From Betaproteobacteria bacterium (lineage in GTDB: Bacteria > Pseudomonadota > Gammaproteobacteria > Burkholderiales > Usitatibacteraceae), in NCBI GenBank assembly GCA_016720855.1, contig JADKJU010000005.1, positions 249,636-313,635 of the forward strand: a DNA stretch of 64,000 bases, written 5' to 3'. A program made the position numbers and the translations under genes. The notes under the pieces are model-generated. The model worked only from the letters and a program-made list of their open reading frames with translations. It had not been told where the DNA came from and did no database searches. How positions within the stretch are numbered: the first letter of the stretch is position 1; every line of letters begins with the position of its first letter. Of the stretch, positions 26,010 through 55,662 are shown piece after piece.

Positions 26010-26039
26010 GCGTGCTCCCCGGGGCGTCCGAAGGCGGGA

Positions 26040-26911: not shown

Positions 26912-27021
26912 TTGGGTTCTCCTCCCGTCGGTGGGGGCGGTCCCGGCAAACGCCGGGCCGCCCCTCATGATGGAGCCGCGGTGCTTCTCCTTCGCGACGG
27001 CCCGGCACGGGCCGCCACGTC

Positions 27022-28491: not shown

Positions 28492-29594
28492 GGGACGATC
28501 GCCGCGCGCAGCACCTTGCGGTCCTCGGCGTCCTTCATGGCCTGGCCGACCTGGTCGAGACTGTACTTTCCGTCCACCAGCGCGTGGAAGGGGAAGCGCT
28601 TGCGGTTGCCGTGCACGAAATCGAGCGCCTCGATGAGGTGCCTGGGGTGGTAGTTGTGCACGCCGCGGATGGTGAGGAGCTTGCGCAGGATCATGTTGGC
28701 GTCGATCGTGACGTTCGAGCCCGGGTTCACGGTGCCGCCGAACACGAAGCGCCCGCCCGTGCGCAGGAACTGCAGGCCGGGGATCGCCACCTCGGGGTAG
28801 CCGCACACCTCGATCACCGCGTCGGCGCCTTCGGGGCGGCAGAGCGCGCGCACCTGCTCCACGAGCCCCGCTTCGGGCATCGACGAGGGATCGAACACGT
28901 GGTCGCAGCCGAACGCCAGGCCCAGTTCGCGCCGCGAGGCGACGTTGTCCAGGCCGATCACCAGGCGCGCTCCGCGACCCTTGGCGAGCGCGGCGCCATA
29001 GAGGCCGAGGAGCCCCAGGCCGAAGATGACGACGGCATCGCCCAGCTTCACCTGCGCCTGCTCCGTGACGGACACCATCGTCGCCACGCCGCAGTTGACC
29101 GGGGTCGCCTCCTCATCCGTGAGGTCGTCCGGGAGCTTCAGGATCCAGGACCTCGGCAGCACGTAGCAGTACTCGCCGAACCCGCCGTGGTGGTGGGGTT
29201 CCGTCGTCACCGCCATGTGGCCGTACTTGTCCACACCCGGGGACTTCTGCGGGAGGTCCAGCACCTCGGTGTAGTAGTTGTTGCCCGGGATGAAGTACTC
29301 GCTCCAGGTGATGCGGTCGCCGGACTGTAGCGGTGCCCCGCGCATGTCATGAGTGATGCCCTCGCCCAGTTCGAGGATCGTGCCGATGATCTCGTGACCC
29401 AGCAGGCCGGGGCACGGATTCGGCCGGTGGCCCAGGTAGGAGTGGATGTCCGACCGGCAGATGGTGGACATGCGGATCTTCACGAGGACCTCGTCCCGGC
29501 GCGGCGCGCGCACCGGGAAGAGGCGGATCTCGAAGGGCTTGTTGGGCGCGTCGTAGATCGCGAGGCGGCCCATCAGGTCGGCGGCGATCGCCAT
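28488..29594 (-). CDS. zinc-dependent (MDR) alcohol dehydrogenase of the phosphonate-catabolism-associated type
   Basis: 368 aa. Zn ligand contexts CRSDIH and GHEIIG, NAD fold VIFGLGLLGL. It is wedged between phnA and the ALDH gene with 1-nt and 4-nt junctions. Confidence 0.85.
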   Translation of the reverse strand: MAIAADLMGRLAIYDAPNKPFEIRLFPVRAPRRDEVLVKIRMSTICRSDIHSYLGHRPNPCPGLLGHEIIGTILELGEGITHDMRGAPLQSGDRITWSEYFIPGNNYYTEVLDLPQKSPGVDKYGHMAVTTEPHHHGGFGEYCYVLPRSWILKLPDDLTDEEATPVNCGVATMVSVTEQAQVKLGDAVVIFGLGLLGLYGAALAKGRGARLVIGLDNVASRRELGLAFGCDHVFDPSSMPEAGLVEQVRALCRPEGADAVIEVCGYPEVAIPGLQFLRTGGRFVFGGTVNPGSNVTIDANMILRKLLTIRGVHNYHPRHLIEALDFVHGNRKRFPFHALVDGKYSLDQVGQAMKDAEDRKVLRAAIVP

Positions 29595-29595
29595 G

Positions 29596-30867
29596 TCAGT
29601 GCGCGGGGCCGTTGAGGGCGAACTCGAAGAGCTGCCAGCTCTTGAGCACCTGCACGCCGCCCTTGATCCGGTAGTCGTCGTTGAGGGGCCGGTTGATGAT
29701 GAACGGCACCTTGGCCTCCGAGACCCCGCCGTGGGTGCGCAGGCGATGGCCCTCGAGACCCTTGAGGTCGTGGTCCTTCTCCGAGGCGCCGATGCACACG
29801 TCGTGCGTGGAAATCACCACCACGTCGGCCTCGCGGTCCTCCGGCAGGCTGTGCACCTCGCAGGCGTCCTTCTTGCCGAGGACCGACTCGATGCCCCGGA
29901 TCGGCCGGATCACTTCCATCACCTGCTCCGGGGTCACCTTGCCCGCCCCGCCGGTGATCCACACGCGCACGAAGCCGCCGAGCGCGCCGTGGTGGGCGAC
30001 GAAGGCGTCCGTGATCGGGCAGATCACCTGCACGGCGCCCTTGCCGAGCTTCGCGTCGAGGATGTCCTGCAACCAGATGACGTTGGGCTTGCCCTCGGCG
30101 TTCGACTTGTCGTTCATGCCGTGGTCGGCCGTGAGCGCCACCGTGGCGCCCAGCTCCGCCAGGCGCCCGAAGCGCCAGTCGAGCTCCTGGTAGAAGCGGC
30201 GGGCCTCGGACTCGGTCGGCGCGTACTTGTGCTGGATGTAGTCCGTGAGCGAGAGGAACAGGATGTCGCGGTGTGACTGCTCGAGCAGCTTGATACCGGC
30301 GTCCAGCACGAATAGCGAAAGTTCCATCGAGTACATGTCGGGCTGCGGGTGGCCCAGCCAGGCGGCCGCGTTGTCGATGCCGTGCTCGGCCAGCGTGGTC
30401 GAGGCGGACTTCTCCGAGGAAAAGCACACGTTGCCCTTCGTGACGTCGAGGCCCTTGCCGAGCTGCGTCCTCAGCTTGTCCTTGGCCGTGATCGCGACCA
30501 CCTTCGCGCCGGCATCGGCGAAGCCCTTGAGCACGGTGTCGCCGCGCAGCAACTCCGGGCCCGTCATCACGACCGCCTTGCCCGTCTTCACGTCCAGGTA
30601 GTAGTTGCCCGAGATGCCGTGCTTCGAGGCCGGCGTGCCGGTCACCACCGACATGTTGTTGGGGCAGGTGAACGACGGCACGGTGCCTTCGGCCACGACG
30701 GCGAAGCCTTCTTTCATGAACCGGGCGATGTTCGGGACGGCGCCTTCCGCGATGAACTGCTGCAGGTAGGCCGGGTCGCCGCCGTCGATGATCACGACGG
30801 CGACGGGCCGGTCCGGCCAGCGGTAGCTCGTGCCGTTCACCACGACGGGGGGTCTTGCGTTCGCCAT
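29596..30867 (-). CDS. phnA: phosphonoacetate hydrolase
   Basis: I prefer the start MANARPPVVVNG. AP-superfamily motifs are VIIDGGDP, PSFTCPNNMS (Thr nucleophile), LTDYIQHK and TADHGMN. Length and order match PhnA. Confidence 0.85.
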   Translation of the reverse strand: MANARPPVVVNGTSYRWPDRPVAVVIIDGGDPAYLQQFIAEGAVPNIARFMKEGFAVVAEGTVPSFTCPNNMSVVTGTPASKHGISGNYYLDVKTGKAVVMTGPELLRGDTVLKGFADAGAKVVAITAKDKLRTQLGKGLDVTKGNVCFSSEKSASTTLAEHGIDNAAAWLGHPQPDMYSMELSLFVLDAGIKLLEQSHRDILFLSLTDYIQHKYAPTESEARRFYQELDWRFGRLAELGATVALTADHGMNDKSNAEGKPNVIWLQDILDAKLGKGAVQVICPITDAFVAHHGALGGFVRVWITGGAGKVTPEQVMEVIRPIRGIESVLGKKDACEVHSLPEDREADVVVISTHDVCIGASEKDHDLKGLEGHRLRTHGGVSEAKVPFIINRPLNDDYRIKGGVQVLKSWQLFEFALNGPAH

Positions 30868-30967
30868 GAATCCACTCCTTCCCATGGGGCCGCCAGTCGG
30901 GCCTGGCAAGGCCGGGGCAGCGGGGTTTCCGATTGCGTTTGCCGAAAGCTAGCAGCTTCGCCTAATA

Positions 30968-34236: not shown

Positions 34237-35943
34237 GTGCAGACACTCCTCAATCTTCTCGCCAGCGTGGCCCTGCTCGTCTGGGGCACGCACATCGTGC
34301 GCACGGGCATCCTGCGCGTCTACGGCGCCGACCTGCGGCGCGTGCTGTCGAAGAGCGTCTCCAGCCGCGGCTCGGCCTTCCTCGCGGGGCTCGGCGTCAC
34401 CAGCCTCGTGCAGTCCTCGAGCGCAACCGCGCTCATCACCAGCGGCTTCGTCTCGCAGGAACTCATCGCGCTCGCCCCGGCTCTTGCCATCATGCTGGGC
34501 GCCGACGTGGGCACCTCGCTCATGGCGCAGGTGTTTTCGCTGGATCTCTCGTGGCTTTCGCCGCTCGCCATCTTCTTCGGCGTGATCTTCTTCCTCACGC
34601 GCAGGAACACCAAGGCCGGGCAGATCGGCCGCGTGTCGATAGGGCTCGGTCTCATCATCCTCGCCCTGCAGCTCATCCAGGCGGCCGCGAAGCCCATCGT
34701 GTCGGCCGCGGGAACGAAGGTGCTGTTCGACTCCCTGACGGGCGACCCGATGCTCGACATGCTGATCGGCGCGCTGTTCGCCCTGTTCTCGTGGTCGAGC
34801 CTGGCGGTGGTGCTGCTCTCGGCCACGCTCGCCGCCACGAGCGTCATCTCGGTGCCCGTCGCGATGTGCCTCGTGCTGGGCGCAAACCTGGGCAGTGGCG
34901 CGCTCACGGTCTTCGCGACGATGGGCACGCCGGGCGGAGGGCGGCGGGTCGCCTTCGGCAACCTGCTCTTCAAGCTGGTCGGCTGCCTGGTGTTCTCGTT
35001 GGCCCTGCCGCTGGCGCTGCAGGCCATCGCGCATTTCGACGCCGACCCGCGCCGGCAGGTGCTGCACTTCCACGTGATGTTCAACGTGATCCTGGCCGGC
35101 GGCTTCATCTTCTTCACCGACTCCATCGCGCGCCTGCTGGAGAAGTGGCTCCCGGAAACCGCCGGCAGCGGCACCGTCACCGCCGAGCCCCGCCACCTCG
35201 ACGGCGGCGCGCTCGATACGCCGACGCTGGCCCTTGCCAATGCCGCGCGCGAGACGCTCAGGATCGGCGACATCGTCGAGCAGATGCTCAACGGCATGCT
35301 GGAAGTGCTGCGCACCAACGACGAGAAGCGGGTCGACGAGCTGATCCGCCTCGACGACGACGTCGACCGCCTCTACACCGCGGTGAAGCTCTACCTCACC
35401 CAGATCAGCCGCGAGGCGCTGGACGAAAAGGACGGCCGGCGCTGGGCCGAGATCATCTCGCTCACCATCAACCTGGAGCACGTGGGCGACGTGATCGAGC
35501 GCATCCTCGTCGACATCAAGGACAAGAAGATCGCGCACCGGCTCTCGTTCTCGGAAGCGGGGATGCAGGAACTCGCCGACCTGCATGCGAAGCTGGTGGC
35601 GAACCTGCGCCTGGGACTGTCGGTCTTCCTCACCGGGGACGTGAGGAGCGCGCAGATGCTCCTCGAGGAAAAGGAGAAGTTCCGCGACCTCGAGCGCTCC
35701 TACGCGAGCCAGCACCTCGACCGCCTCTCGGTCCAGTCGGTGCAGTCCATCGAGACGAGCTCGCTGCACCTGGACATCATCAGCGACATGCGCCGCATCA
35801 ATTCCTTCTTCTGCTCGACCGCCTACCCGATCCTCGAGCAGGCGGGGCAGCTGAGGAAGAGTCGGCTCAGGCCCGCCACAGCGGCCGGCGACGCCACGGG
35901 CGCCTTTACCGCCAAGACCGACCTGGCTCGCGGGGCCAAGTAA
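34237..35943 (+). CDS. Na/Pi cotransporter family protein with C-terminal PhoU-like domain (YjbB/NptA type)
   Basis: 568 aa with a GTG start. LLASVALLVWGTHIVRTGILRVYGADLR is the hallmark N-terminus. The C-terminal half has paired PhoU-like helical repeats. Confidence 0.85.
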   Translation: MQTLLNLLASVALLVWGTHIVRTGILRVYGADLRRVLSKSVSSRGSAFLAGLGVTSLVQSSSATALITSGFVSQELIALAPALAIMLGADVGTSLMAQVFSLDLSWLSPLAIFFGVIFFLTRRNTKAGQIGRVSIGLGLIILALQLIQAAAKPIVSAAGTKVLFDSLTGDPMLDMLIGALFALFSWSSLAVVLLSATLAATSVISVPVAMCLVLGANLGSGALTVFATMGTPGGGRRVAFGNLLFKLVGCLVFSLALPLALQAIAHFDADPRRQVLHFHVMFNVILAGGFIFFTDSIARLLEKWLPETAGSGTVTAEPRHLDGGALDTPTLALANAARETLRIGDIVEQMLNGMLEVLRTNDEKRVDELIRLDDDVDRLYTAVKLYLTQISREALDEKDGRRWAEIISLTINLEHVGDVIERILVDIKDKKIAHRLSFSEAGMQELADLHAKLVANLRLGLSVFLTGDVRSAQMLLEEKEKFRDLERSYASQHLDRLSVQSVQSIETSSLHLDIISDMRRINSFFCSTAYPILEQAGQLRKSRLRPATAAGDATGAFTAKTDLARGAK

Positions 35944-35978: not shown

Positions 35979-37832
35979 TCAGGCCCGGTCGGGAACAGCC
36001 CGCCGCAGCGCACCCCATTGCAGCGCCGCCACCAGCCCGAGCAGGCCCAGGCCGGCGGCATCGGTGACGAGGCCCGGCTTGATGAGCAGGAACGCCGCCG
36101 CCGCGAGGAGGAATCGCTGCCACAGGACGAGATGCCCGAGCAGGTAGCCGTAGAGGGAGGCGGCCAGCGCCATGACGCCCAGGACGGCGGTGCCGGTGGC
36201 GAGCGCGATGGTCCCCCAGTCGCCGATGGCCAGGAGCGCCGGCTCGTAGACGAACATGAAGGGCACGATGAAGCCGGCGGCCGCGATGCGCACCGACTCG
36301 AATCCCGCGCGCCACATGTTGGCCTTCGCAAGCGCCGCCGCCGCGAAGACGGCCAGCGCCACCGGCGGGGTGATCGCGGAAAGCACCGCGAAGTAGAGCG
36401 CGAACATATGCGCCGCGGGTGTGACCACGCCCAGCTTGACCAGCGCCGGCACGAGGAGCGACACCATCACGATGTAGGCCGGGGTCGTGGGCATGCCCAT
36501 GCCCAGCACGATTCCGGCCATCGCGGTGAGGACCAGCGCGAGGATGAGGCTGTTCTGCGCCAGCGCGATGACGATCTGCGTGAAGGTGATGCCGAGCCCG
36601 GTGAGGGAGATGACGCCGATCACGATACCGGCGCAGGCGCAGGCCATCGCGACCGAGAGCGCGTCCCGGGAGCCGCCTTCTAGCGCCTCCAGGACCGTGC
36701 GCCAGGAGATGCCCTCGCGTGTGCTCCTGCGCATGAGGGCGACCGGAATGGTCGCGACCGTGCCGACGAGCGCGCAAAGCGGCGCGCTGTACGACATCGA
36801 CATGCCGGCAAGAACCAGCAGGATGGGGATGAAGAGGTGGCCGCGCTCCTTCATCACCGCGACGAAGCGCGGAAGCTCGGCACGCGGCACGCCCACGAGG
36901 CCGACGCGCTTCGCCTCGAAGTGGACCGCGAAGAAGAGCGCCACGTAGAAGAGCAGTGCCGGGATCCACGCCCAGACGGTGACCTGGAAGTAGCTCACCG
37001 CGAGATATTCGGCCATGACGAAGGCCGCGGCACCCATGATCGGGGGCATGATCTGCCCGCCCGTGGAGGCGCTCGCCTCCACCGCCGCGGCGAACGGCGC
37101 CCGGAAGCCGGTCTTCTTCATGAGCGGGATGGTGATCGGCCCGTCCACCATCACGTTCGCGACGGCGCTGCCGGAGATGGTGCCGAACAGGCTCGAGCTC
37201 ACGATCGCGACCTTGCCCGGCCCGCCCGCCGTGTGCCCGGTGAGCGAGAGCGCGAAGTCCATGAATAGCCTGCCCGTGCCGCTCTTCTCCATGAAGGCGC
37301 CGAAGAGCACGAAGACGATCACGTACGAGGCGGATACGCCCAGCGTCGAGCCGAAAATGCCGTCGGTGGACAGGTACATCTGCTCGAGCAGCACCTGCAT
37401 CTTGATGCCCGAGTAGAAGACGGCGTAGGCGAGGAACACGAGCGCGGTGAGGGGCAGGGACCACCCGATCACCCGCCGCGTCGCATCGAGCACCAGGATG
37501 ACCGTGAGCACCGCCATCGCCTTGTCCCAGGCGCTCAGGTCGTCGATGTAGATGATGCGATTGACGATGTACTGGTAGTTGACGAAGAGGTAGCCGACCA
37601 CCAGTGCCGCGGCGGCGATCAGAGCCAGGTCCAGCCCGAGGAGACGACGCGGGCCCCCGCGCTTTCCGCCGGCCGGGAAGAGCAGGAAGACGAGGACGAG
37701 CGCGAACAGGAGGTGCGTGCCGCGGAAGATCATCGCCTCGGGAGGCGCGGAGGCCGCGAACCACATGTGGTAGAGCGACATCGCGACCGCGATGCCGCCC
37801 GTGGCCCAGCGCAGCGCTGCCGTCATCGACAC
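35979..37832 (-). CDS. TAXI-type TRAP transporter fused permease (4TM/12TM)
   Basis: 617 aa. ...SLYHMWFAASAPPEAMIFRGTHLLFAL... is typical of the TAXI-associated fused permease. Confidence 0.85.
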   Translation of the reverse strand: MSMTAALRWATGGIAVAMSLYHMWFAASAPPEAMIFRGTHLLFALVLVFLLFPAGGKRGGPRRLLGLDLALIAAAALVVGYLFVNYQYIVNRIIYIDDLSAWDKAMAVLTVILVLDATRRVIGWSLPLTALVFLAYAVFYSGIKMQVLLEQMYLSTDGIFGSTLGVSASYVIVFVLFGAFMEKSGTGRLFMDFALSLTGHTAGGPGKVAIVSSSLFGTISGSAVANVMVDGPITIPLMKKTGFRAPFAAAVEASASTGGQIMPPIMGAAAFVMAEYLAVSYFQVTVWAWIPALLFYVALFFAVHFEAKRVGLVGVPRAELPRFVAVMKERGHLFIPILLVLAGMSMSYSAPLCALVGTVATIPVALMRRSTREGISWRTVLEALEGGSRDALSVAMACACAGIVIGVISLTGLGITFTQIVIALAQNSLILALVLTAMAGIVLGMGMPTTPAYIVMVSLLVPALVKLGVVTPAAHMFALYFAVLSAITPPVALAVFAAAALAKANMWRAGFESVRIAAAGFIVPFMFVYEPALLAIGDWGTIALATGTAVLGVMALAASLYGYLLGHLVLWQRFLLAAAAFLLIKPGLVTDAAGLGLLGLVAALQWGALRRAVPDRA

Positions 37833-37847
37833 GGCCGCACTCCTGCG

Positions 37848-38786
37848 CTACATCGCCCCGACTTCCTTGTAGTACTTCACCGCGCCGGGGTGGAACGGGA
37901 CGCCGATGTCCTCCGCCATCATCTTCGGGGTGAGGCCGGTCATGGCCTTGTTGATCGCGGCCATGTCGGCCACGTTGGCGGCCATGGCCTTCACCATCGC
38001 GTACACCTGCTGCTCGGGAAGGCTGCAGGCGACGACGAGGTGCGCGGAATAGACGATCGCGGGCACGTCCTGGTCCTGCTTCGGGTATGTGCCGCCCTTG
38101 ATGACGCCCTTCACGTAGCCGGGGTTCATTCTGCGCATCGCCGCGACGATCTCGTCCGTCACCGGCACCATCCTGATGTCGCGCCCCGAGGCGACGTCCA
38201 TCACCGAGGAGGCGGGAATCGTCGTGCCGAGCGTGAACACCTGCGCGTGGCCGTCCTTCATGAGCGCCGCCGCGTCCGTGTAGCTGTTGACGAAGCTCAC
38301 CTTTGCGCTCTGGTAGGAGAGCCCGACGGACTGCAGGATCTGCTGCGAGATGAGCTCCGCGGTGTTGCCCTTCGGCTGCACCGCGATCGACTTCCCCTTG
38401 AGGTCGGCGATGCCCTTGACGCCGCTGTCCGCGAGCGCCACCACCTGGAAGTACTGCGGGTAGAGGTTCGCGAGCTGGCAGGCCTTGGTGACCTTCTGCG
38501 GGTACGGCGGGCGCCCGTGGACGCCGTCGACCGAGGTGATGCTGTTGCCGAAGCCCACGTCGGCCTTGCCCTCGTCCACGCCGCGGATGTTGGCGATGCC
38601 GGCGCCGGGGCTGGTCTGGACCTGGAGGCCGGGGATCGCCTTCTCCCACATGCTCTTGAGCTGGCCGCCGAGCGGCACCCAGACTCCGCCCTGCGGGCCT
38701 GTCATCAGGCGGATCGTCTGCGCCTGCGAGGCGCCGGCGGTGAATGCGGCGGCGACAGCCACCGCGAGGGAAAGCCTGCGGATCAT
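37848..38786 (-). CDS. TAXI-family TRAP transporter solute-binding protein
   Basis: 312 aa. Signal peptide, then IRLMTGPQGGVWVPLGGQL and GVDEGKADVGFG, the TAXI hallmarks. Confidence 0.85.
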   Translation of the reverse strand: MIRRLSLAVAVAAAFTAGASQAQTIRLMTGPQGGVWVPLGGQLKSMWEKAIPGLQVQTSPGAGIANIRGVDEGKADVGFGNSITSVDGVHGRPPYPQKVTKACQLANLYPQYFQVVALADSGVKGIADLKGKSIAVQPKGNTAELISQQILQSVGLSYQSAKVSFVNSYTDAAALMKDGHAQVFTLGTTIPASSVMDVASGRDIRMVPVTDEIVAAMRRMNPGYVKGVIKGGTYPKQDQDVPAIVYSAHLVVACSLPEQQVYAMVKAMAANVADMAAINKAMTGLTPKMMAEDIGVPFHPGAVKYYKEVGAM

Positions 38787-38967
38787 GATGTGCTCCTCCG
38801 TATTGTCGGTTGTCGTTCCGTGTAGGCCCTAGACTTGACCGCGCGAGTATCGCACAGGGTCCGGGGCGGCCGCATTGCGCCAGGCGGCCCCGTCGCGTTC
38901 CGCCCGGGACGCCATCGGCAGCGATCCCGGGGACCGCTACACTGTCTCCTTTCGCCAGGAGCCGCCC

Positions 38968-40347
38968 ATGAAGAAGCTCGCAGGTTCGCCTCGCGACGCC
39001 GCAGCCATCGTCGAGGCCATCCGCAAGTCGCCGCTCGGCAAGGTGAAGGTCGCCGTGTCGGACATCGACGGCATCCTGCGCGGCAAGCTCCTGCACAAGG
39101 ACAAATTCCTCGCCGCCGTCGAGGGCGGCTTCGGCTTCTGCGACGTGGTGTTCGGCTGGGACTCGGGCGACCAGTGCTACGACAACACGAAGCTCACCGG
39201 CTGGCACCACGGCTTTCCCGATGCGATGGTGAGGCTGGACCTCAACACCTACCGCACCGTGCCCTGGGACGGCGGCATCCCCTTCTTCCTCGGGCACTTT
39301 GTGAAGGCGGACGGCTCTCCTCTCCCGATCTGCCCGCGCCAGGTGCTACGCCGCGTGCTTGCGCGTGCGGAAAAGATGGGCTTCGCCGCAATGGTCGGCT
39401 CCGAGTACGAGTTCTTCAACTTCGCCGAGACGCCGCAGAGCTGGGCCGCCAAGAAGGGCGTGGGGCCGGAGCCGATCACGCAAGGCATGTTCGGCTATTC
39501 GCTGCTGCGCACCAACGCCAATCGCGAGTACTTCAATGCCCTCATGGACGACCTGGGCACCTTCGGCATCCCCATCGAGGGCCTGCACACGGAAACCGGC
39601 CCGGGCGTGTACGAGGCGGCGATCATGTTCTCGGAAGCGCTGGAGGCGGCGGACCGCGCGCTCCTCTTCAAGACGGGAGCCAAGGAGATCGGCGCGCGCT
39701 TCGGCATCATGCCGTCCTTCATGGCCAAGTGGAGCCAGCAGTATCCGGGTTGCTCCGGTCACCTGCACCAGAGCCTTTCCGACGGGAAGAAAAACCTCTT
39801 CTCCGACGCGAAGGGCCGCCACGGCGGCATGTCGAAGCTCTTCGAGAGCTACCTCGCGGGCCAGATTGCCGCACTCATGGAAATGGCACCGATGTACTGG
39901 CCGACCGTGAATTCCTACAAGCGCCTCGTTGATGGCTTCTGGGCGCCGGTGAAGCCGACCTGGGGCGTGGACAACCGCACCGCCAGCTTCCGCGTCATTT
40001 CCGGCAGCCCCAAGGCGACGCGCCTGGAGACGCGCTGCCCCGGCGCCGACATGAACCCCTACCTCGCCACGGCCGCGGTGATCGCCGCCGGGCTGCACGG
40101 CGTGGAGAAGGGCTTGAAGCTCACCGCGAAACCCGTCCACGGCACCAACGAAGGCGCGGAGAACATCCCGCGCGCACCGCGCACGCTCATCGAGACCACG
40201 CGCATCTTCCGCGACTCCAAGGTCGCCCGCGACTGGTTCGGCGACGACTTCGTGGACCACTTCGCCGCCACGCGCGAATGGGAATGGCGCCAGTGGCTGG
40301 ACGCCGTGACCGACTGGGAATTGAAGCGCTACTTCGAGATCATCTAG
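38968..40347 (+). CDS. glutamine synthetase family protein (gamma-glutamyl-amine synthetase, PuuA/GlnA4-like)
   Basis: I prefer ATG 38968 (AGGAG 7 nt upstream). 459 aa with GS catalytic-domain collinearity (..GPGVYEAAI.. , ..NRTASFRV..). Confidence 0.8.
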   Translation: MKKLAGSPRDAAAIVEAIRKSPLGKVKVAVSDIDGILRGKLLHKDKFLAAVEGGFGFCDVVFGWDSGDQCYDNTKLTGWHHGFPDAMVRLDLNTYRTVPWDGGIPFFLGHFVKADGSPLPICPRQVLRRVLARAEKMGFAAMVGSEYEFFNFAETPQSWAAKKGVGPEPITQGMFGYSLLRTNANREYFNALMDDLGTFGIPIEGLHTETGPGVYEAAIMFSEALEAADRALLFKTGAKEIGARFGIMPSFMAKWSQQYPGCSGHLHQSLSDGKKNLFSDAKGRHGGMSKLFESYLAGQIAALMEMAPMYWPTVNSYKRLVDGFWAPVKPTWGVDNRTASFRVISGSPKATRLETRCPGADMNPYLATAAVIAAGLHGVEKGLKLTAKPVHGTNEGAENIPRAPRTLIETTRIFRDSKVARDWFGDDFVDHFAATREWEWRQWLDAVTDWELKRYFEII

Positions 40348-40368: not shown

Positions 40369-41979
40369 CTAGCGGTACTCCGCCCGCCATTTCGCAACCT
40401 CCGAGAGCAGGCCCTCGGGTCGCTCGACGATCACCTCGGGCTCCCCGTCGAGCACGCGGCCGCGCTCCGCATCGAGGCAGATCGTCTCCCCTTCACGAAG
40501 CGTGCGCGTGCCCAGCATGATCGCGCGCGCCTTCTCGTCGATGCGCAGGGTGGTACAGCCCACCAGGCAGACCTTGCCCATCTGCCGCGCGACCACCGCG
40601 GCGTGGGACGTGCGCCCTCCCCGCGCGGTCAGCACGCCGGCGGCCAACGCGATGCCGGCGATGTCCTCCGTACTGGTGTCGTTTCTCACGAGAATGACCG
40701 GCCCGCCGGCGGCAAGCCTCTCGCACGCCTTCGTGTCGAGCGCGATGGCGCCCACCGCGAGCCCGATGCTGGCGGGCTGCGCGAACGCGAGGGCCGCCTC
40801 GCCTTCGTCCGCGACGCGGCGGCGCTCGATCGCCGCCAGGTCGATGCCGTCGAGCCGGGCGAGCGCCTGCGCAGGCGTGCAAAGGCCCTCGCGCACCTGC
40901 TCGACCGCCATGCGCAGCGCCGCCCACGGCGTGCGCTTGGCCGTGCGCGACTGCAGCAGGTAGAGGCGTCCGTCTTGCACGGTGAACTCGAATTCCTGCG
41001 CATCGCCGAAGGTCGCCTCCAGCGTGTGGCGCAATTCGTCCAGCCGCTGCGCAACCTCGGGCAGCGCCACCGGAAGACGACCGGTGTCATTGACGGGATG
41101 CCGCCCCGACACCACATCCTCGCCCTGGGCGTTGAACAGGAAATCGAGATAGAGGCGGTTCTCGCCCGTGGAAGGGTCGCGCGTGAAGCCCACGCCGGAG
41201 CCCGATGTGCCCCCCGCGTTTCCGAACACCATGCGCTGAACCGTGACCGCGGTGCCGATCGCATGGTCGAGCCCGTGCAGCCGGCGGTACTCCTGCGCGC
41301 GCGCCGAATGCCACGAATCGAACACCGCGATCGTGGCCGCCTCGAGCTGCTCGCGCGGATCCTGCGGGAAGGCCGCCCCCGTCGTCTCCGCGAAGAGCTC
41401 CAGGTTCTCCGCCGTGAGCCGGGTGAGGCTCTCGAAATCGAGCTCGCGCGGGCCGGCCACGCCCGCCTGGGCGACTGCCGTCGCGGCCAGCTCGTCGAAG
41501 GCGGCACTATCGGCGCCATGGACGATCTGCGCGTACTGCTGCACGAGGCGCCGGTAGGAATCCCAAACCAGGCGCGGGTTCCCGGTGAGCCGCAGGAGCC
41601 CGCGCACGGTGCGGTCGCACAGCCCGATGTTGAGCACCGTGTCCATCATGCCGGGCATCGAAACCGGCGCTCCGGAGCGCACGGAAACGAGCAGGGGCCT
41701 TCTTTCGCCGCCGAACGACAGCCCGCAGGCCTGCTCCAGGCGACGCGACCACTCGCCGAGCGCGGCGTGAAGCGGCGCCCGGGCCTCCTCGGGATTGCGC
41801 TCGTGGAGCCGGCACCAGTCCGTTCCGAGCACGAAGGCATGCGGGACCGGCATCCCAGCCGCCGCCATCCGCTGCAGGTTGCAGGCCTTGAATCCCATCG
41901 CGTTTGCATTGCCCGGCACCGCACCGGCGTGGGGGATTCCGATGCCGAACACCGTGCAGGCGCTGTCGGGGGCGGTCAT
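40369..41979 (-). CDS. pyruvate-phosphate-dikinase-like protein: ATP-grasp nucleotide domain plus phosphohistidine swivel domain, no PEP/pyruvate TIM barrel
   Basis: 536 aa. The N-terminal two thirds are collinear with the PPDK N-domain (SVRSGAPVSMPGMMDTVLNIGL, FEFTVQDGRLYLLQSR). The swivel motif is TARGGRTSHAAVVARQMGKVCLVG. The ORF ends about 60 aa after it. Confidence 0.8.
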   Translation of the reverse strand: MTAPDSACTVFGIGIPHAGAVPGNANAMGFKACNLQRMAAAGMPVPHAFVLGTDWCRLHERNPEEARAPLHAALGEWSRRLEQACGLSFGGERRPLLVSVRSGAPVSMPGMMDTVLNIGLCDRTVRGLLRLTGNPRLVWDSYRRLVQQYAQIVHGADSAAFDELAATAVAQAGVAGPRELDFESLTRLTAENLELFAETTGAAFPQDPREQLEAATIAVFDSWHSARAQEYRRLHGLDHAIGTAVTVQRMVFGNAGGTSGSGVGFTRDPSTGENRLYLDFLFNAQGEDVVSGRHPVNDTGRLPVALPEVAQRLDELRHTLEATFGDAQEFEFTVQDGRLYLLQSRTAKRTPWAALRMAVEQVREGLCTPAQALARLDGIDLAAIERRRVADEGEAALAFAQPASIGLAVGAIALDTKACERLAAGGPVILVRNDTSTEDIAGIALAAGVLTARGGRTSHAAVVARQMGKVCLVGCTTLRIDEKARAIMLGTRTLREGETICLDAERGRVLDGEPEVIVERPEGLLSEVAKWRAEYR

Positions 41980-43913
41980 TGGACCACCAGCTCGCCAAGG
42001 ACCGCATCGCGAAGCTGCAGCGCCGTGTGCATCAGCGCGTCCGTCGCTGCCTCGAGGTTACGCGCGCACTCGACGAACCCGTAGAGACTGCCAAAGTCGC
42101 CCGGCTGCGCCGGGACAAGGATCTTGGCGGCCCGGTGGACCTCGTCGCTGCGCCGCTCGAGGGTCATGATGCGATGGATGGCTTCCAGGAAATCCTGCGT
42201 GTCCTCGCGCGGGCTTCCGCGGTGCAGCGTGCGCGCGGTCTCCACGGCCTTGAGGTACTCCTGCACGCTCTCGACCGAAATGGCGGCCAGGGGGCGAAGC
42301 GCCGCGTACAGCGGCTCGCCGCGCAAGTCATGGGGCATGAGCGCCAGGTGGAACGCGGCCTCCTCGAGTTCATCCACGATGTCGTCGGCCACCTCGATCA
42401 GGTCGCGGTAGGACTGCGCGCGCTCGGAATGGCGCGCCTGCGCGCGCGCGGTGTTCACGAATTCGTCGGCGCGGTGTTCCCAGGCCTTGGCGCGGCGGGC
42501 GTTTCGCGCGAACTCCTCGGCCGCGTCCGCAGCACCCGCATTCAGGAGCGCGTCGCGGATCCCGCTCGCGATCTCGAGGGCGAAGGCGGCGTGCTCGGCG
42601 GCGATGTCGAGGACGCTTTCCTGCGCCGACCGGAAGTAGCTCACCAGCTCCGCGCGCACCTCGTCGCGCACGAGGCCCTCGGGACGCCCGCCCTGAAGGC
42701 CCTGCGCGCAGGTGCGCATGACGTAGCGCATGAACTTCACGGCGGCGTCGCGGCCCAGCACGTCGTCCAGCCGCGCGCCGAAGGAAGACGGCGTCCGGGA
42801 GACGAACGCCAGCGAATCGAAGATCATCTGCTCCCCGCCGGCACGCAGGAAAGCCATGTGCCCGTGGTCGTTGTCGGCCGCCCACTTGAGCAGCTCCGCC
42901 ACCTCCTTCCTGGGCAGCAGCAGCCGCAGGCGCTTCCTCGCGCGGTTCCAGTCGATGAGGAAGACGAGCCGCGAGCCCATGAAGGCGAGGTAGTCCTCGA
43001 TCTCCGCGGCGCTCCCGGCCGTGTAGGTGCCGATGCACAGGTGGTACACGCCGTCCTTCATGCTCCGGTCGTTGCGCGAGAGCGTGTCCTCCCAGCGGAC
43101 ACGGCGCGCGTCGAAGAGCCCCTGGAAGAACATGAGCCGCTGCATGTGCACGTCGGTGTAGGTGAGCGTGACGCGATTGGCCTCGACGTGCACCACGAGG
43201 ACGTGCGCATCCGTCGTGCCGATGTCGTTCTGAAGCACCAGCCGATCGCCCGAGCGCGTGGCCGTGGTGCCCAGGCCCGGGTGGTCGAACTTGACGGATG
43301 CCGTGCGGTTCACGCCGCGCATGAAGGCCGCCACCAGCGGCCGGTCGCCCGGCGCGATCCCGTAGGCATGGGCGCCGTCGATGATCTCGGACGAGACGCG
43401 CACCTGCAGCCCGTTCAGGGCCTTGTGCATGTCCATCACCAGGCGATGGACGCTGTCGGTGCCGTCCTGTCCGCCCGAGGTGAGCGCAACGATCTGGTCG
43501 CTGGTGATCTGCTCGTCCGTGCCGCACCAGGGCAGTCCGGACAGGCGCTGGCGGCGCTCGTCGAATGCAGCCACGTCGTCGCCGGAGGCCTTCAGCGGCG
43601 CGAGCATCGCATCGACCTCGGCCAGCAGGCGCGTGCAAAGGCGATCCACGCCCGGCATGAAGTAGCGGCCATCCCCGATCCGCGTTGCGCAGGCCGCGAC
43701 CTCGTCGAACCCCGCCGCGGCCAGCCCCGCCGCCTCGCGCTCGGCGCGCAATTCAGGCGCGGCGCTGCCCGGATGGTCCGCATGGCCCTGCGCGACCTGC
43801 AGGACGGTAAACAGGTACTTCGCGCGGTCGTTGGCCGACAGCGCCTCGTTCAGCAACGCAGGCAGGCGCAAGCCTTCCTCACCCAGCGCTTCGACGATCC
43901 GCGATTTTTCCAT
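41976..43913 (-). CDS. 645-aa protein of unknown function with C-terminal DUF47/PhoU-like helical domain; translationally coupled to the PPDK-like gene
   Basis: The stop overlaps the downstream ATG (ATGA at 41976-41979). The last ~200 aa show two DUF47-type repeats (WEHRADEFV...LIEVADDIVDELEEAAFHLAL and LERRSDEVHR...LEAATDALMHTALQL). I do not recognise the N-terminal ~430 aa. Confidence 0.7.
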   Translation of the reverse strand: MEKSRIVEALGEEGLRLPALLNEALSANDRAKYLFTVLQVAQGHADHPGSAAPELRAEREAAGLAAAGFDEVAACATRIGDGRYFMPGVDRLCTRLLAEVDAMLAPLKASGDDVAAFDERRQRLSGLPWCGTDEQITSDQIVALTSGGQDGTDSVHRLVMDMHKALNGLQVRVSSEIIDGAHAYGIAPGDRPLVAAFMRGVNRTASVKFDHPGLGTTATRSGDRLVLQNDIGTTDAHVLVVHVEANRVTLTYTDVHMQRLMFFQGLFDARRVRWEDTLSRNDRSMKDGVYHLCIGTYTAGSAAEIEDYLAFMGSRLVFLIDWNRARKRLRLLLPRKEVAELLKWAADNDHGHMAFLRAGGEQMIFDSLAFVSRTPSSFGARLDDVLGRDAAVKFMRYVMRTCAQGLQGGRPEGLVRDEVRAELVSYFRSAQESVLDIAAEHAAFALEIASGIRDALLNAGAADAAEEFARNARRAKAWEHRADEFVNTARAQARHSERAQSYRDLIEVADDIVDELEEAAFHLALMPHDLRGEPLYAALRPLAAISVESVQEYLKAVETARTLHRGSPREDTQDFLEAIHRIMTLERRSDEVHRAAKILVPAQPGDFGSLYGFVECARNLEAATDALMHTALQLRDAVLGELVVQ

Positions 43914-44085
43914 CGCTTCGGGTTTCCGGGAGTCCTCACTGGAATCTACCGGGACGCCGTGTATGCCTCATGTCATAGGTCAACAGGTCGCCAATCGGCG
44001 CGGTTCCAGTGCATCATTCGCCGTACCCGCCGGACGATTCCGGCGTTTCACCCGCCCGCAAACCCCCTTTCCAGTCCCTTCCGCC

Positions 44086-45220
44086 ATGGCACTTTCCCGC
44101 TTCGCGTTTCCCACGACCATCCATTTCGGCCCCGGTGCGCGCCGCCTGGTCGATGACCACCTCAAGAGCCAGGGCATCGCTCGCCCGCTCATCGTCACCG
44201 ACCGCGGGCTTGCCGCGCTGCCGATCCTCGCGGAGTTGCGCGCGCTCCTGCCCGGGCTCGCGGTGCAGACCTATTCCGGCGTGCACGGCAACCCGACGAA
44301 GTCGCAGGTGGACGCGGGAGTCGCCGCCTTCAAGGCGCACCGCGCCGATTGCGTGATCGGCTTCGGCGGGGGCGCGGCGCTCGACGTCGCCAAGGCCGTG
44401 GCGCTCATGGCCGTGCACGAGGGCGACATCCTCGAATACGCGTGGGACCACCCGGACGTGCGCCCGATCGTGAACGCGCTGCCGCACTTCGTGGCACTGC
44501 CGACGACCAGCGGGACCGGAAGCGAGGTGGGGCGCTCCTCGGTCATCTCGCACGACACGACGCACGTGAAGAAGATCGTCTTCTCGCCGGCGCTCCTGGC
44601 GAAGGCGGTGTTCGCGGATCCGGAACTCACCCTGGCGCTGCCCCCTCCCATCACCGCGGCGACCGGCCTGGATGCCCTCACGCACAATGTGGAGAGCTAC
44701 CTCTCGCCCGCCTATCACCCGCTTTGCGACGGCATTGCGCTCGAAGGCACCCGCATCGCTGCCCGCGCGCTCGCGCTGGCGGTGCGCGAGCCGGCGAACC
44801 TGCAGGCCCGCTCCGACATGATGATGTCCTCGATGATGGGCGCGATCGCCTTCCAGAAGGACCTGGGCGCTGTGCATTCCTGCGCCCACGCGCTGGGCAC
44901 GGTGGTGGACATGCACCACGGGCTCGCCAACGGCATCATGATCGACCACGTGATGCGCTTCAATGCCGATGCGGCCGCGCAGAAGATGGGCGAGCTCGCG
45001 CGCGTCTGCGGCGCGGGGCGCCTCGGCAAGCGACTTCGTGGCCTGGCTCGGCCGGCTGAAGCAGGAAGTCGGAGTCCCCGCGAAGCTCGGATCGAAAGGC
45101 GTCACCGCCGCGCACATTCCCGCGCTTGTCGAGGTGGCCGTGAAGGACACCTGCCACCAGACCAACCCGAAACCGTGCACCGCCGACGATTTTCGCCGGA
45201 TCTTCGAAGGCGCGATATAG
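44086..45220 (+). pseudogene. iron-containing (group III) alcohol dehydrogenase with an apparent 1-nt frameshift near 45012-45020
   Basis: ATG 44086 gives MALSRFAFPTTIHFGPGA..., GGGAALDVAKA and HSCAHALG. After ..MGELARVCG the frame turns into Arg-rich junk. The +1 frame carries the expected C-terminus ..DFVAWLGRLKQEVGVPAKL...FRRIFEGAI-stop (45220). The combined length of 378 codons is normal for the family. Confidence 0.75.
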
Positions 45221-45240
45221 TGATGCCTCCCTCACCCCGC

Positions 45241-45261
45241 CCCTCTCCCGGAGGGAGAGGG
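45241..45261. repeat. perfect 9-bp GC hairpin CCCTCTCCC-gga-GGGAGAGGG preceded by CCCTCACCCC (boxC-like intergenic element)
   Basis: Seen directly in the sequence. It lies between the Fe-ADH stop and the next ATG (45270). The right arm contains the only purine-rich Shine-Dalgarno candidate for that gene. Confidence 0.5.
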
Positions 45262-45269
45262 AGAAAAGC

Positions 45270-46088
45270 ATGCATCCACTGAAAATCGGGATTTCCGCCC
45301 GGCTCCTCTACCCGGATCCGCAGCGCACCTTCCTGCCCACGAAGACGGTGCAGTACCTCGAGCAATCCGTCGCCAGCTGGGTGATGTCGGGCCAGGTGCT
45401 GGCCTTCATGGTGCCGGAGATGAGCCTTTCGTCTCCGCACCTGCCGGCCAACGTCACGGTGAAGGACTACGTCGATGCGCTCGACGGCCTGGTCCTGCAG
45501 GGAGGAGCGGACATAGCGCCGGAATCCTATGGCGAGACGCCCCTCAATCCGGCGTGGTCCGGGGACCGCGTCCGCGACCGCTACGAGATCGAACTCTTCG
45601 AGGAGACGGTCCGCCAGGGCAAGCCCGTGTTCGGCATCTGCCGCGGCTGCCAGCTCATCAACGTGGCCCTGGGGGGCACGCTCTACCAGGACATCAACAC
45701 GCAGGTGCCGGAGACGCTCCTGCACCGCTGCGACAAGCGCTACGAGGACAACTTCCACGCCATGCGCGTCATCGAAGGAAGCTGGCTCTCCGCGGTGTAC
45801 CCGGGCGCCGCGATCACGCGCGTCAACACCATCCACCACCAGTCGGTGAAGGCCCTCGGCCGGGGCCTCGTCGTCGAGGCCGTCAGCGAGCCCGACGGCA
45901 TCGTGGAGGCCATGCGCTGGGAGGGCCCGAGCTTCGTGCTGGGCGTGCAATGGCACCCCGAATTCATGGATCCGTCCGACGCGGCGCTGCTCGACGGCAA
46001 GCCGCTGCAGGCCGCGTTCCTGGCCGCCTGCCGCAGCCGCAAGACGACCGGCAATCCCTCGCCCGTGACTGCCGTCATGGCTGCCTGA
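45270..46088 (+). CDS. gamma-glutamyl-gamma-aminobutyrate hydrolase family protein (peptidase C26, PuuD-like)
   Basis: 272 aa with nucleophile elbow GICRGCQLIN and His context VQWHPE. Confidence 0.85.
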   Translation: MHPLKIGISARLLYPDPQRTFLPTKTVQYLEQSVASWVMSGQVLAFMVPEMSLSSPHLPANVTVKDYVDALDGLVLQGGADIAPESYGETPLNPAWSGDRVRDRYEIELFEETVRQGKPVFGICRGCQLINVALGGTLYQDINTQVPETLLHRCDKRYEDNFHAMRVIEGSWLSAVYPGAAITRVNTIHHQSVKALGRGLVVEAVSEPDGIVEAMRWEGPSFVLGVQWHPEFMDPSDAALLDGKPLQAAFLAACRSRKTTGNPSPVTAVMAA

Positions 46089-46194
46089 AGTGGCGTCCGA
46101 TCGACCAACCCCCGGGAGCACCCGACGGGGAATCCGTCCGGCCTGCGAATCCCCTTTGCATCCACCCGCGGTTCCACCTGCTGCGATCGCCTCC

Positions 46195-47574
46195 ATGCCC
46201 ACGCTGAGAATCACCAACCCCGCCAACGGCAAGCCCGTCGCCTCCCTCCCCGCCGACGACGCCGCGAGCGTCAAGGCGAAATTCGCCGCCGCGCGCGCCG
46301 CGCAGCCCGCGTGGGCGAGGACGCCGCTGAAGAAGCGGCTCGCGGCAATCGCGAAGTTCCGCGCCCTCGTCATCGCGCAGACCGAAGAACTCGCCGCCAT
46401 CCTCACCACCGAGGTCGGCAAGCCCATCTCGCAGTCCAGGAACGAGCTGAAGGGCCTCATCGGCCGCCTCGATTTCTTCCTGGAGGAAACCGCCCGCACG
46501 CTCAGGCCCCGCAAGGTGGCCGGCGCGAAGGGCGGCGCGATGCAGGAAGTGATCGGCCACGAGCCGCTCGGCGTCGTCGCCAATGTCTCGGCCTGGAACT
46601 ACCCGTACTACGTCGGCGCCAACGTGTTCGTCCCCGCGCTCGCCACGGGCAACGCGGTTCTCTACAAGCCGTCCGAATTCGCGACCCTCACCGGCCTCGC
46701 CATCGCGCGGATGCTGCACGAGAGCGGAATTCCCGACGACGTCTTCATCCCCGTCATCGGCACGGGCGAGGTCGGCGCGGCGCTCGTGAAGCAGCCCGTG
46801 GACGGCGTCTTCTTCACCGGCTCCTACGGGACCGGCAAGCGCATCGCCCAGGCCGTGCGCGGGCGCATGATCCGCCTGCAGCTCGAGCTCGGCGGCAAGG
46901 ACCCGGTGTACGTCTGCGAGGACGTGGACGTGGCGGCCGCCGCGGCGGGAATCGCCGATGGCGCGTTCTACAACACCGGCCAGAGCTGCTGCTCGGTCGA
47001 GCGCATCTACGTTCACGAGGCCGTCTTCGAGGCCTTCCTCGCCGCCTTCGTGAAAGAGGTGAAGGGATTCAAGTCGGGCGACCCGCAGGCGGAGGCGACG
47101 TACATCGGCCCGCTCACCCGCGCGCCGCAGCTGAAGGTGCTCGAGCAGCAGGTGGCGGATGCGAAGCGCAAGGGCGCGAAGATACTCGCCGGCGGCCGGC
47201 GCGTGAAGGCGAAGGGCCACTGGTTCGAGCCCACCGTGATGGTGAACGTGGATCACTCGATGAGCGTGATGCGCGAGGAGAGTTTCGGCCCGATCATCGG
47301 CCTCATGCCGGTCAAGGACGACGCCGAGGCCGTTCGCCTCATGAACGACACGGACTACGGCCTGACTGCCGGCGTCTACACGAGGGACCGCAAGCGGGCG
47401 CAGCGGGTCCTTGCGCAGGTGCACGCGGGAAGCGTGTACTGGAACTGCTGCGACCGCGTGAGCCCGCGCCTGCCCTGGTCCGGCGTCGGGCATTCCGGCA
47501 TCGGGCTCACCCTTTCCACCCATGGCATCGAGGCCTTCACGCGCACCAAGGCGTGGCATCTCAAGACCCCCTGA
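46195..47574 (+). CDS. NAD(P)-dependent aldehyde dehydrogenase
   Basis: I prefer the start MPTLRITNPANGK. ELGGKDP and TGQSCCSVER. 459 aa. Confidence 0.85.
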   Translation: MPTLRITNPANGKPVASLPADDAASVKAKFAAARAAQPAWARTPLKKRLAAIAKFRALVIAQTEELAAILTTEVGKPISQSRNELKGLIGRLDFFLEETARTLRPRKVAGAKGGAMQEVIGHEPLGVVANVSAWNYPYYVGANVFVPALATGNAVLYKPSEFATLTGLAIARMLHESGIPDDVFIPVIGTGEVGAALVKQPVDGVFFTGSYGTGKRIAQAVRGRMIRLQLELGGKDPVYVCEDVDVAAAAAGIADGAFYNTGQSCCSVERIYVHEAVFEAFLAAFVKEVKGFKSGDPQAEATYIGPLTRAPQLKVLEQQVADAKRKGAKILAGGRRVKAKGHWFEPTVMVNVDHSMSVMREESFGPIIGLMPVKDDAEAVRLMNDTDYGLTAGVYTRDRKRAQRVLAQVHAGSVYWNCCDRVSPRLPWSGVGHSGIGLTLSTHGIEAFTRTKAWHLKTP

Positions 47575-55658: not shown

Positions 55659-55662
55659 TGCC

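Follow-up and report, generated by a model that had tools for sequence, protein, structure and literature searches.

We report here on a pair of overlapping genes which probably encodes a real, uncharacterised phosphoryl-transfer machine tied to the metabolism of inorganic phosphate (Pi). The pair lies on the reverse strand of a 64,000-nucleotide stretch of DNA, referred to hereafter as the window, from a member of the Usitatibacteraceae (GenBank assembly GCA_016720855.1, contig JADKJU010000005.1, positions 249,636–313,635). The first gene (41976–43913, 645 aa) encodes a protein with a PhoU/DUF47-like C-terminal domain and over 4,500 homologues of similar length (about 645 aa), which we call the partner, and the second (40369–41979, 536 aa) encodes a truncated pyruvate, phosphate dikinase (PPDK) which has the ATP-grasp domain, the phosphohistidine swivel domain and the linker, and lacks the phosphoenolpyruvate (PEP)/pyruvate TIM barrel. 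Both open reading frames have a coding-type composition (GC content at third codon positions of 0.89–0.90, in a window of 68% GC), and the stop codon of the partner gene runs into the PPDK-like start codon in an ATGA overlap (41976–41979; CAATGACC). This overlap, which is visible in the sequence and had been pointed out in an earlier reading made without database searches (the sequence-only reading), suggests that translation of the two genes is coupled. Literature searches found no publication describing the pairing of a DUF47/PhoU partner with a PPDK, and what is new is a swivel-histidine phosphotransferase with a new putative acceptor module; truncated PPDKs are themselves known and no longer unprecedented. 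The statement in the sequence-only reading that no characterised equivalent exists thus holds for the two-gene module and falls for the truncated PPDK taken alone, which has a precedent in VadK (Rv1127c) of Mycobacterium tuberculosis (PMC13400623).

The shorter protein corresponds to the N-terminal and central parts of PPDK (EC 2.7.9.1). In a Pfam scan it matched PPDK_N (PF01326, E = 1.3e-35) and PEP-utilizers (PF00391, E = 1.6e-20, residues 427–507) only, with no match to PEP-utilizers_C (PF02896). It covers positions 15–525 of the 865 in the PPDK equivalog model TIGR01828 (519 bits, below the cut-off of 843), and aligns without large gaps to residues 15–530 of the 873 in Clostridium symbiosum PPDK (386 bits; structures 1KBL and 1DIK). 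By these alignments the protein stops short of the PEP/pyruvate barrel, right at the boundary between the domains, as the sequence-only reading had it. The ATP-grasp nucleotide/Pi domain spans approximately residues 25–390 (40810–41907) in the C. symbiosum alignment, and the swivel or PEP-utilizers mobile domain spans residues 396–513 (40441–40794), as judged from PF00391 and the isolated PPDK central domain 2fm4. The ATP-site residues are kept, with K31, R101, E331, Q343 and R345 equivalent to K22, R92, E323, Q335 and R337 of the C. symbiosum enzyme, which we take from the PPDK literature to serve ATP binding and catalysis. The catalytic His459 (codon 40603–40605) sits in the motif GGRTSHAAVVAR, with the context G-G-R-T457-S-H459-A-A-V-V-A-R, and these five ATP-site residues plus T457 and H459 are each conserved in at least 97% of 71 orthologues. 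The protein scores far higher against PPDK than against PEP synthase (519 and 86 bits, respectively), so that orthophosphate rather than water should take the gamma-phosphate of ATP and leave as pyrophosphate (PPi); a Pi- and PPi-dependent first half-reaction is therefore our expectation, based on homology.

All complete and uninterrupted orthologues of the PPDK-like gene encode proteins of 526–575 aa. The extra domains seemingly present in two longer versions (L034, 749 aa, and L039, 983 aa) were rejected as artefacts, caused by a stop codon that had been missed and by a stretch of N. We note that in a Methanoregula metagenome-assembled genome (MAG; L041, 3251–4986) and in the Solemya velesiana gill symbiont (L076, 2175–3240) the PPDK-like gene was recovered in two tblastn segments, which may be frameshifts or decaying copies.

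The pairing of the two genes is conserved across Bacteria and Archaea. We scanned one genome per species using the partner as seed and obtained 80 loci from Beta- and Gammaproteobacteria, Geobacter relatives, Pirellulales (Planctomycetes), Solirubrobacterales (Actinobacteria), Gemmatimonadales, Methanomicrobiales and Nitrososphaerales, two of which could not be tested because the contig ends at the partner gene. A truncated PPDK homologue was found directly downstream and on the same strand in all 78 of the testable loci, with a spacing mostly between -8 and +25 nt and an ATGA overlap in twelve of them, while in eight Solirubrobacteraceae loci the two are fused in frame to give proteins of about 1,200 aa; one natural fusion lies at 6001–9585 of L068, and more fusions were seen among the representatives of partner clusters (P0130 and P0136). 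The reverse test was a metagenome scan seeded with the PPDK-like protein, in which the partner was sought by profile. This returned 78 loci of the canonical PPDK type (66 complete, encoding 781–961 aa, and 12 running off the contig end), none of which had a partner, and two truncated genes (L083 and L084), both with the partner upstream. In neighbour-joining trees, all 100 of 100 bootstraps kept the truncated proteins apart from the N-terminal halves of canonical PPDKs. Across 65 loci, pairwise identity among the partners closely tracked that among the PPDK-like proteins (r = 0.95, Mantel p ≤ 0.001), with nearly equal means (47% and 48%). Given the obligate pairing, the fusions, the separate clade and the correlated identities, the pair is a single co-inherited unit and its pairing is not due to chance; both the conservation of the pairing and the co-occurrence of the truncated PPDK with a DUF47-tailed partner, which the sequence-only reading had left to be checked, are borne out.

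No third conserved gene was found by clustering of 378 neighbours (three genes on either side) or in Pfam scans of 265 neighbours. Nine archaeal loci, from Methanomicrobiales plus one from Nitrososphaerales (L035, L037, L038, L048, L051, L053, L058, L066 and L074), have a convergent gene for a pyridine-nucleotide-disulphide oxidoreductase of about 450 aa (Pyr_redox_2) directly downstream of the pair; in Aquabacterium this place is taken by an FAD oxidoreductase that is not significantly similar to the archaeal protein.

The patchy phyletic distribution of the pair, and its presence on two megaplasmids (p1 of Methylocella tundrae T4, L081, and pTB101 of Aquabacterium olei, L082), might suggest a mobile accessory element such as an anti-phage defence system or a toxin–antitoxin pair. 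We consider this exceedingly improbable: neither protein matched a PADLOC family, no match was found in 50,697 phage records, the neighbours are metabolic or housekeeping genes, and both plasmids are large and non-mobilizable. On the Methylocella plasmid the pair directly follows a beta-oxidation cluster on the same strand, with an alkaline-phosphatase-family gene 3.6 kb downstream.

The partner falls into a large family, with 1,237 clusters at 50% identity (E ≤ 1e-3), in which its closest homologues are from Usitatibacteraceae and other Betaproteobacteria. Its sole Pfam match was to PhoU_div/DUF47 (PF01865, residues 471–595, E = 7.8e-6), a marginal one (25.8 bits against a cut-off of 24.4, over model positions 45–167 of 214) which was also given by all 31 homologues tested, the best with E = 3e-10. 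Against TIGR00153 the partner scored 14.6 bits, short of the cut-off of 104.3. An AlphaFold2 model built with the 31 homologues (mean predicted local distance difference test score, pLDDT, of 87.5) has six long helices at residues 412–644, and these superpose in Foldseek on the PhoU/DUF47 structures 3l39, 2olt, 2iiu and 4q25 (for 3l39, 2olt and 4q25, E = 3e-4 and TM-scores of 0.72–0.77 on the target). A profile search of Protein Data Bank (PDB) sequences with the partner also matched the PhoU-like 3l39 and no other. Residues 412–645 (41979–42680) thus form a PhoU/DUF47-like six-helix domain of two three-helix repeats carrying acidic E/DxxxD-type motifs (E479/D483, D510/D514/E517, E586/D590 and E621/D625), in which E479, D483, D514, E517 and R594 are at least 93% conserved among 87 homologues.

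The two-repeat six-helix fold and the acidic motifs of these C-terminal 230 residues are shared with PhoU/DUF47 proteins (PF01865 and TIGR00153; 3L39, 2OLT, 2IIU and 4Q25). Typical members of that family are stand-alone proteins of about 205–225 aa which are found beside pit or pst genes as regulators associated with the Pit and Pst transporters. In contrast, the partner is three times the usual size, with a 410-aa N-terminal extension, and is linked to a kinase instead of a transporter; no Pit/PHO4 or Pst families were found among the most frequent neighbour families of the pair loci.

The N-terminal region (residues 1–410, 42684–43913) is an alpha/beta domain in the AlphaFold2 model without a known fold or family. 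Predicted alone it gave a pLDDT of 87.1 and a predicted TM-score of 0.77. No Pfam family was matched by this region in the partner or in the 31 homologues, no PDB sequence was found by profile search, and no PDB structure was matched by Foldseek with E ≤ 1e-3, either in the full model or when the region was predicted alone; the best PDB match had E = 0.018 and a TM-score of 0.16–0.20. Foldseek matches to ARPC2 and LAGLIDADG proteins had root-mean-square deviations of 14–18 Å and were dismissed as meaningless. The sequence-only reading had described DUF47/PhoU repeats at the C-terminus of the partner and an unrecognisable N-terminus, both of which stand, and had put the length of the latter at about 430 aa, which we revise to about 410 aa.

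The conservation maximum of the partner lies in this N-terminal region, at residues 120–360, and not in the PhoU tail. Approximately 25 polar residues between positions 120 and 360 are at least 93% conserved among the 87 homologues (which are 32–49% identical to the window protein), including H211-P-G-L, D321-W-N, R326 and K327. The most conserved core, at residues 205–360 (42834–43301; based on the 87 plus the 31 homologues), includes the motifs FDH211PGLG, the loop N229-D230-I-G232-T-T-D-A-H237, D254-V-H256-x-x-R259, W274, the basic helix D321-W-N-R-A-R326-K327-R, and G351-H352, with R120, D153, H156 and H163 just upstream equally conserved, and the core positions are invariant in the 31 closer homologues. 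A concentration of invariant His, Asp, Arg and Asn residues like this one would be expected of a catalytic or metal- and phosphate-binding site, and we regard residues 205–360 as the candidate acceptor or active site.

The invariant N-D-I-G-T-T-D-A-H loop (residues 229–237, 43203–43229) lies between two beta strands and has some likeness to the D-x-G-T-T phosphate 1 motif of the ASKHA superfamily. An ASKHA half-domain was rejected, with an hhalign probability of 0.1% against Ppx and no actin-like fold found by Foldseek, and this likeness is best read as a motif-level remark with no homology support.

These data also bear on whether the two genes are simply a canonical PPDK or PEP synthase in two pieces, with the partner providing the PEP/pyruvate barrel in trans for the interconversion of pyruvate and PEP. 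The truncation falls exactly at the PPDK domain boundary and the partner is always present, as such a split enzyme would have it. However, neither the partner nor its 31 homologues match PEP-utilizers_C, the PDB sequence matches are to PhoU-like proteins only, and the predicted secondary structure of the N-terminal region, helices plus antiparallel beta-hairpins, is not that of a (beta/alpha)8 barrel, which Foldseek did not find either. A direct hhalign comparison of an 87-sequence partner profile with the C-terminal domains of 49 canonical PPDKs returned a probability of 0.1% over 7 columns. We consider the split PPDK to be effectively refuted, with next to no chance of being correct, and the partner N-terminus, which the sequence-only reading had allowed might turn out to be such a barrel, is not one.

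It should be noted that the pair shares with PPDK the ATP-grasp, swivel and linker, the TSH motif and the ATP-site residues, and that the window protein would be expected to carry out the same first half-reaction (ATP + Pi + His → AMP + PPi + His~P). It differs in having no TIM barrel in cis or from the partner, in forming a separate clade (100/100) which falls well short of the PPDK equivalog score (519 compared to 843 bits), and in being paired or fused with an unrelated 645-aa protein that is missing from canonical PPDK loci.

A wider comparison places the pair among the enzymes in which an ATP-grasp domain or PEP charges a mobile histidine. In PPDK, PEP synthase and enzyme I of the PEP-dependent phosphotransferase system (PTS), a third module holds the substrate which receives the phosphoryl group from the phosphohistidine, and phenylphosphate synthase of Thauera, which has several subunits, demonstrates that the modules can be separate polypeptides. 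The same kind of transfer is described for rifampin phosphotransferase (PMC4844700) and glucan water dikinase (PMC13553574). The pair resembles these last two enzymes, phenylphosphate synthase and PigC/RedH in that an ATP-grasp domain charges a mobile histidine which serves a family-specific acceptor module, and its split architecture would be compatible with an acceptor site on a separate polypeptide, as in phenylphosphate synthase. All four belong to the PEP-synthase branch, use water as the acceptor of the gamma-phosphate and have acceptor domains of known type, whereas the pair has a kinase half of the PPDK type and a putative acceptor module made of a new domain plus a PhoU-like bundle. 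In the transfer from PTS enzyme I to HPr a homologous swivel histidine domain also hands phosphate to a separate protein, but enzyme I is charged by PEP through the barrel which is missing here, and the partner shows no HPr-like or EIIA-like fold.

The reading we favour, to which we would give a little short of an even chance, is that of a swivel-histidine dikinase made of two subunits, where the phosphoryl group is passed at the partner core to an acceptor, most likely Pi, PPi or polyphosphate (polyP). To the observed domain content, intact catalytic residues, gene pairing, fusions, separate clade and co-evolution, this proposal adds two inferences, namely that the partner receives the phosphoryl group and what the final acceptor is. 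In the first step the PPDK-derived subunit would bind ATP in the ATP-grasp domain and pyrophosphorylate His459, by homology with PPDK, with Pi taking the gamma-phosphate and leaving as PPi to give His459~P and AMP. The swivel domain would then bring His459~P to the partner, which would stand in place of the PEP/pyruvate barrel, with a second active site probably formed by the core residues H211, N229-D230, H237, D254, H256, R259, D321-W-N, R326-K327 and H352. More speculatively, the acceptor (or the donor in the reverse direction) could be Pi, PPi or polyP, with the inorganic phosphate bound, along with metal ions, between the PhoU-like bundle and the basic helix D-W-N-R-A-R-K-R. Overall, the reaction could be ATP + Pi + polyP(n) ↔ AMP + PPi + polyP(n+1), which might also run in reverse and regenerate ATP from AMP. 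A bolder form of the proposal is that the pair is a new inorganic-phosphate enzyme, whose swivel histidine would exchange phosphoryl groups between ATP, AMP and PPi on one side and Pi, PPi or polyP on a new metal-dependent domain on the other (for instance, polyP(n) + AMP + PPi ↔ polyP(n-1) + ATP + Pi), or else the long-sought cytoplasmic sensor of Pi and energy charge, and this we regard as fairly unlikely; were the polyP reaction true, it would be a third route, besides PPK1 and PPK2, joining polyP or PPi to the adenylates in Bacteria and Archaea.

The neighbours of the pair in other genomes give some direction as to the acceptor. Genes encoding CHAD proteins were found within 6 kb in L005, L007, L035, L062, L064 and L065, which are from bacteria and two archaeal phyla, and genes for Ppx/GppA within the same distance in L005, L007, L019 and L020, with a partial match (Ppx domain III) in L035; PhoD phosphatases (L008 and L009) and PhoR (L013) were also found within 6 kb. 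Assuming one or two CHAD genes per genome, which is our own assumption, 0.2–0.5 CHAD genes would be expected by chance in the approximately 640 kb of flanking sequence compared with the five independent lineages seen (Poisson P of about 1e-4 or less), and we treat this enrichment as a lead and not as proof. The clearest operon-like link of the pair to polyP genes is seen in L005 and L007, where CHAD, Ppx, partner and PPDK-like genes are on one strand and overlap or nearly abut. Read together with the PhoU-like domain, these CHAD, Ppx, PhoD and PhoR genes suggest a chemistry of Pi, PPi or polyP, in line with the first half-reaction expected of the kinase, which would use Pi and release PPi, and with the window itself, where a Na/Pi cotransporter carrying its own PhoU domain is encoded (34237–35943, 4.4 kb from the pair on the opposite strand).

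L005 (1303–10578) and L007 (1598–11802) are from MAGs labelled Dongiaceae and Geobacteraceae, respectively, and have an identical gene order of CHAD, Ppx, partner, PPDK-like, APH-type kinase and CBS/SpoIIE phosphatase genes, with Ppx proteins that are 94% identical. This likeness reflects either a recent transfer or a mis-binned contig.

Several observations weigh against the dikinase we favour. Polyphosphate-related neighbours are found in approximately 10% of the loci, and most loci have no phosphate genes nearby. We know of no PhoU/DUF47-domain protein that is an enzyme, those that are known being established or presumed regulators. Residues 1–410 weakly resemble YbjN-like and chaperone-like folds in Foldseek (TM-score of about 0.4, probability 0.6), and folds of this sort bind proteins and are not catalysts. 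A polyP kinase and exopolyphosphatase (PPK and PPX) have been reported for Nitrososphaera evergladensis (PMC4084955), and Nitrososphaera, at least, is not short of a polyP kinase which the pair, if carried there, would replace. Finally, the only characterised truncated PPDK, VadK, has been proposed to be a regulator (PMC13400623).

VadK deserves closer comparison, as it too has lost the barrel and kept the ATP-grasp and histidine domains. It autophosphorylates on His422 in an ATP- and Mg-dependent manner, and has been proposed to regulate enzymes of the methylcitrate cycle by binding them (PMC13400623). This autophosphorylation shows that truncated PPDKs can be active. The VadK paper describes no DUF47-tailed partner or fusion (PMC13400623), whereas here the partner is upstream in 78 of 78 loci, eight of which are fusions. 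The window protein scored 407.5 bits against the short PPDK model NF004531 (PRK05878), below the cut-off of 456, and with six other clade members, including actinobacterial fusions, fell in the range of 396–442 bits, while canonical PPDKs scored 518–531 bits. We take NF004531 to represent the VadK family. Membership of the window protein in a VadK-type family was rejected on these scores, and because the clade falls below the cut-off while canonical PPDKs fall above it, the window clade appears to be a truncation independent of VadK.

The main rival to the dikinase is a regulatory phosphorelay or sensor, in which a VadK-like autokinase would phosphorylate the partner, or bind it in a phosphorylation-dependent manner, with His459~P reporting the ratio [ATP][Pi]/[AMP][PPi] and the PhoU-like domain acting in turn on a transporter, on a histidine kinase or on enzymes of metabolism; such a pair would amount to a cytoplasmic sensor of phosphate and energy charge. 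PhoU-family proteins are regulators and the partner tail has the PhoU fold, several of the invariant His and Asp residues of the partner could accept a phosphoryl group, and kinase–substrate pairs are often operonic or fused. The weak YbjN-like resemblance of residues 1–410 would fit as well, as would the diverse contexts in which the pair is found (amine catabolism in the window, beta-oxidation in Methylocella and PhoR beside L013), which suit a general regulator, and VadK provides a precedent, being a truncated PPDK with autophosphorylation on His422 and a proposed regulatory role exerted by binding (PMC13400623). Set against this, neither Pfam nor Foldseek found an output domain, a receiver domain or an HPr or EIIA fold, and no transporter or histidine kinase was consistently adjacent in the neighbour scans. 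The 240-residue core of the partner also shows a level of conservation seen more often in catalytic sites, and on NF004531 the clade scores below the cut-off and lower than canonical PPDKs do. We judge the phosphorelay to be a serious possibility on the unlikely side, and of the mechanisms considered, the two which the sequence-only reading had offered, a split kinase and a phosphate-responsive phosphorelay, are still in front.

The partner might instead be a regulatory or scaffolding subunit only, such as a Pi- or metal-sensing lid, with the acceptor of the autokinase encoded elsewhere in the genome. The PhoU-like sensor domain could serve in this way, the lack of a third conserved gene would mean that the target is unlinked, and VadK acts on the products of other genes (PMC13400623). 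This would leave unexplained both the many invariant polar residues of the N-terminal core and the equal evolutionary rate and fusion of partner and kinase, and the neighbourhoods yield no candidate target; we find a partner of this kind decidedly unlikely.

In the window, the pair interrupts what looks like a catabolic cluster. One flank is a glutamine-synthetase-like gene (38875–40347, +), with a TAXI-TRAP transporter further upstream (35979–38786, -), and the other comprises genes for an iron-containing alcohol dehydrogenase (Fe-ADH), a C26 gamma-glutamyl peptidase and an aldehyde dehydrogenase (approximately 44.1–47.6 kb, +). The genes at 35979–40347 and 44100–47574 (TAXI-TRAP, glutamine-synthetase-like, C26 hydrolase, Fe-ADH and aldehyde dehydrogenase) resemble a puu-like gamma-glutamylation cluster, and would suit the gamma-glutamylation-type catabolism of an amine or amino alcohol. 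The antisense position of the pair in a catabolic cluster near phosphate genes had been described in the sequence-only reading and agrees with the glutamine-synthetase-like and Fe-ADH flanks, and with the Na/Pi–PhoU transporter and phosphoesterase genes upstream. A glutamine synthetase neighbour is shared with the closest genomic relative (L001) only, and because the neighbourhoods of the other relatives are unrelated, the position of the pair inside an amine-catabolic cluster is probably incidental.

The intergenic region 5' of the pair (43914–44089), divergent with the Fe-ADH gene, is presumed to be the promoter region of a two-gene operon, the boundary of which we would place from gene orientation alone. 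A consensus scan of 43914–44089 found no sigma-70-like promoter, the single terminator-like match in a scan upstream of the pair was inside a coding region, and a search of the upstream sequence for a Pho-box gave nothing convincing.

Other features of the window are noted for completeness. The region at 14054–30909 contains two Phosphodiest genes of the alkaline-phosphatase superfamily (16342–17625 and 29596–30909), a metallophosphoesterase gene (17638–18444), an oligopeptide-type ABC transporter and a second TRAP system, and is likely to be an organophosphorus scavenging region. The Fe-ADH gene beside the pair is apparently frameshifted near 45,000 (open reading frames 43831–45282 and 44963–45220, +): the long frame encodes the Fe-ADH domain plus just positions 1–122 of the 194-position C-terminal domain model, and the remaining C-terminus (equivalent to FucO residues 328–380) is out of frame in the 85-aa product of 44963–45220, indicating either a pseudogene or a sequencing error. 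Downstream of cytochrome oxidase and COX15 genes are two multidomain redox genes with unusual combinations, one of cytochrome b, 2Fe-2S ferredoxin and FAD/NAD reductase domains (55315–57600, +, 761 aa) and the other of cytochrome b, 4Fe-4S dicluster and FlpD-like domains (58100–59677, +, 525 aa).

The swivel-histidine dikinases are a classic case of modular enzyme evolution, and here the PEP/pyruvate module has been swapped for a new domain plus a PhoU-like bundle. This swap is ancient and widespread, with more than 1,200 clusters at 50% identity and a spread over Proteobacteria, Desulfuromonadota, Planctomycetes, Actinobacteria, Gemmatimonadota, methanogens and soil ammonia-oxidising archaea. 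Elsewhere the partner is annotated as a 'DUF47 family protein' or 'phosphate transport regulator', and the PPDK-like gene as a 'PEP/pyruvate-binding domain-containing protein', 'pyruvate,orthophosphate dikinase' or 'pyruvate, phosphate dikinase'; the PPDK name would falsely add a gluconeogenic step to reconstructions of genomes with only the truncated form. Cultured carriers (M. tundrae T4, with SIN04_RS02020/02025 on p1, A. olei NBRC 110486, with DEH84_RS18005/18000 on pTB101, and Plasticicumulans acidivorans DSM 23606, L011) make the pair directly testable. If the acceptor is Pi, PPi or polyP, the pair would be a new class of enzyme relevant to the organisms of enhanced biological phosphorus removal sludge and to PPi-based energetics, and a sensor would be of interest for the way in which intracellular phosphate is perceived. 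Both readings would provide the first function for a large domain of unknown function, and the first enzymatic or signalling partner for the DUF47 domain.

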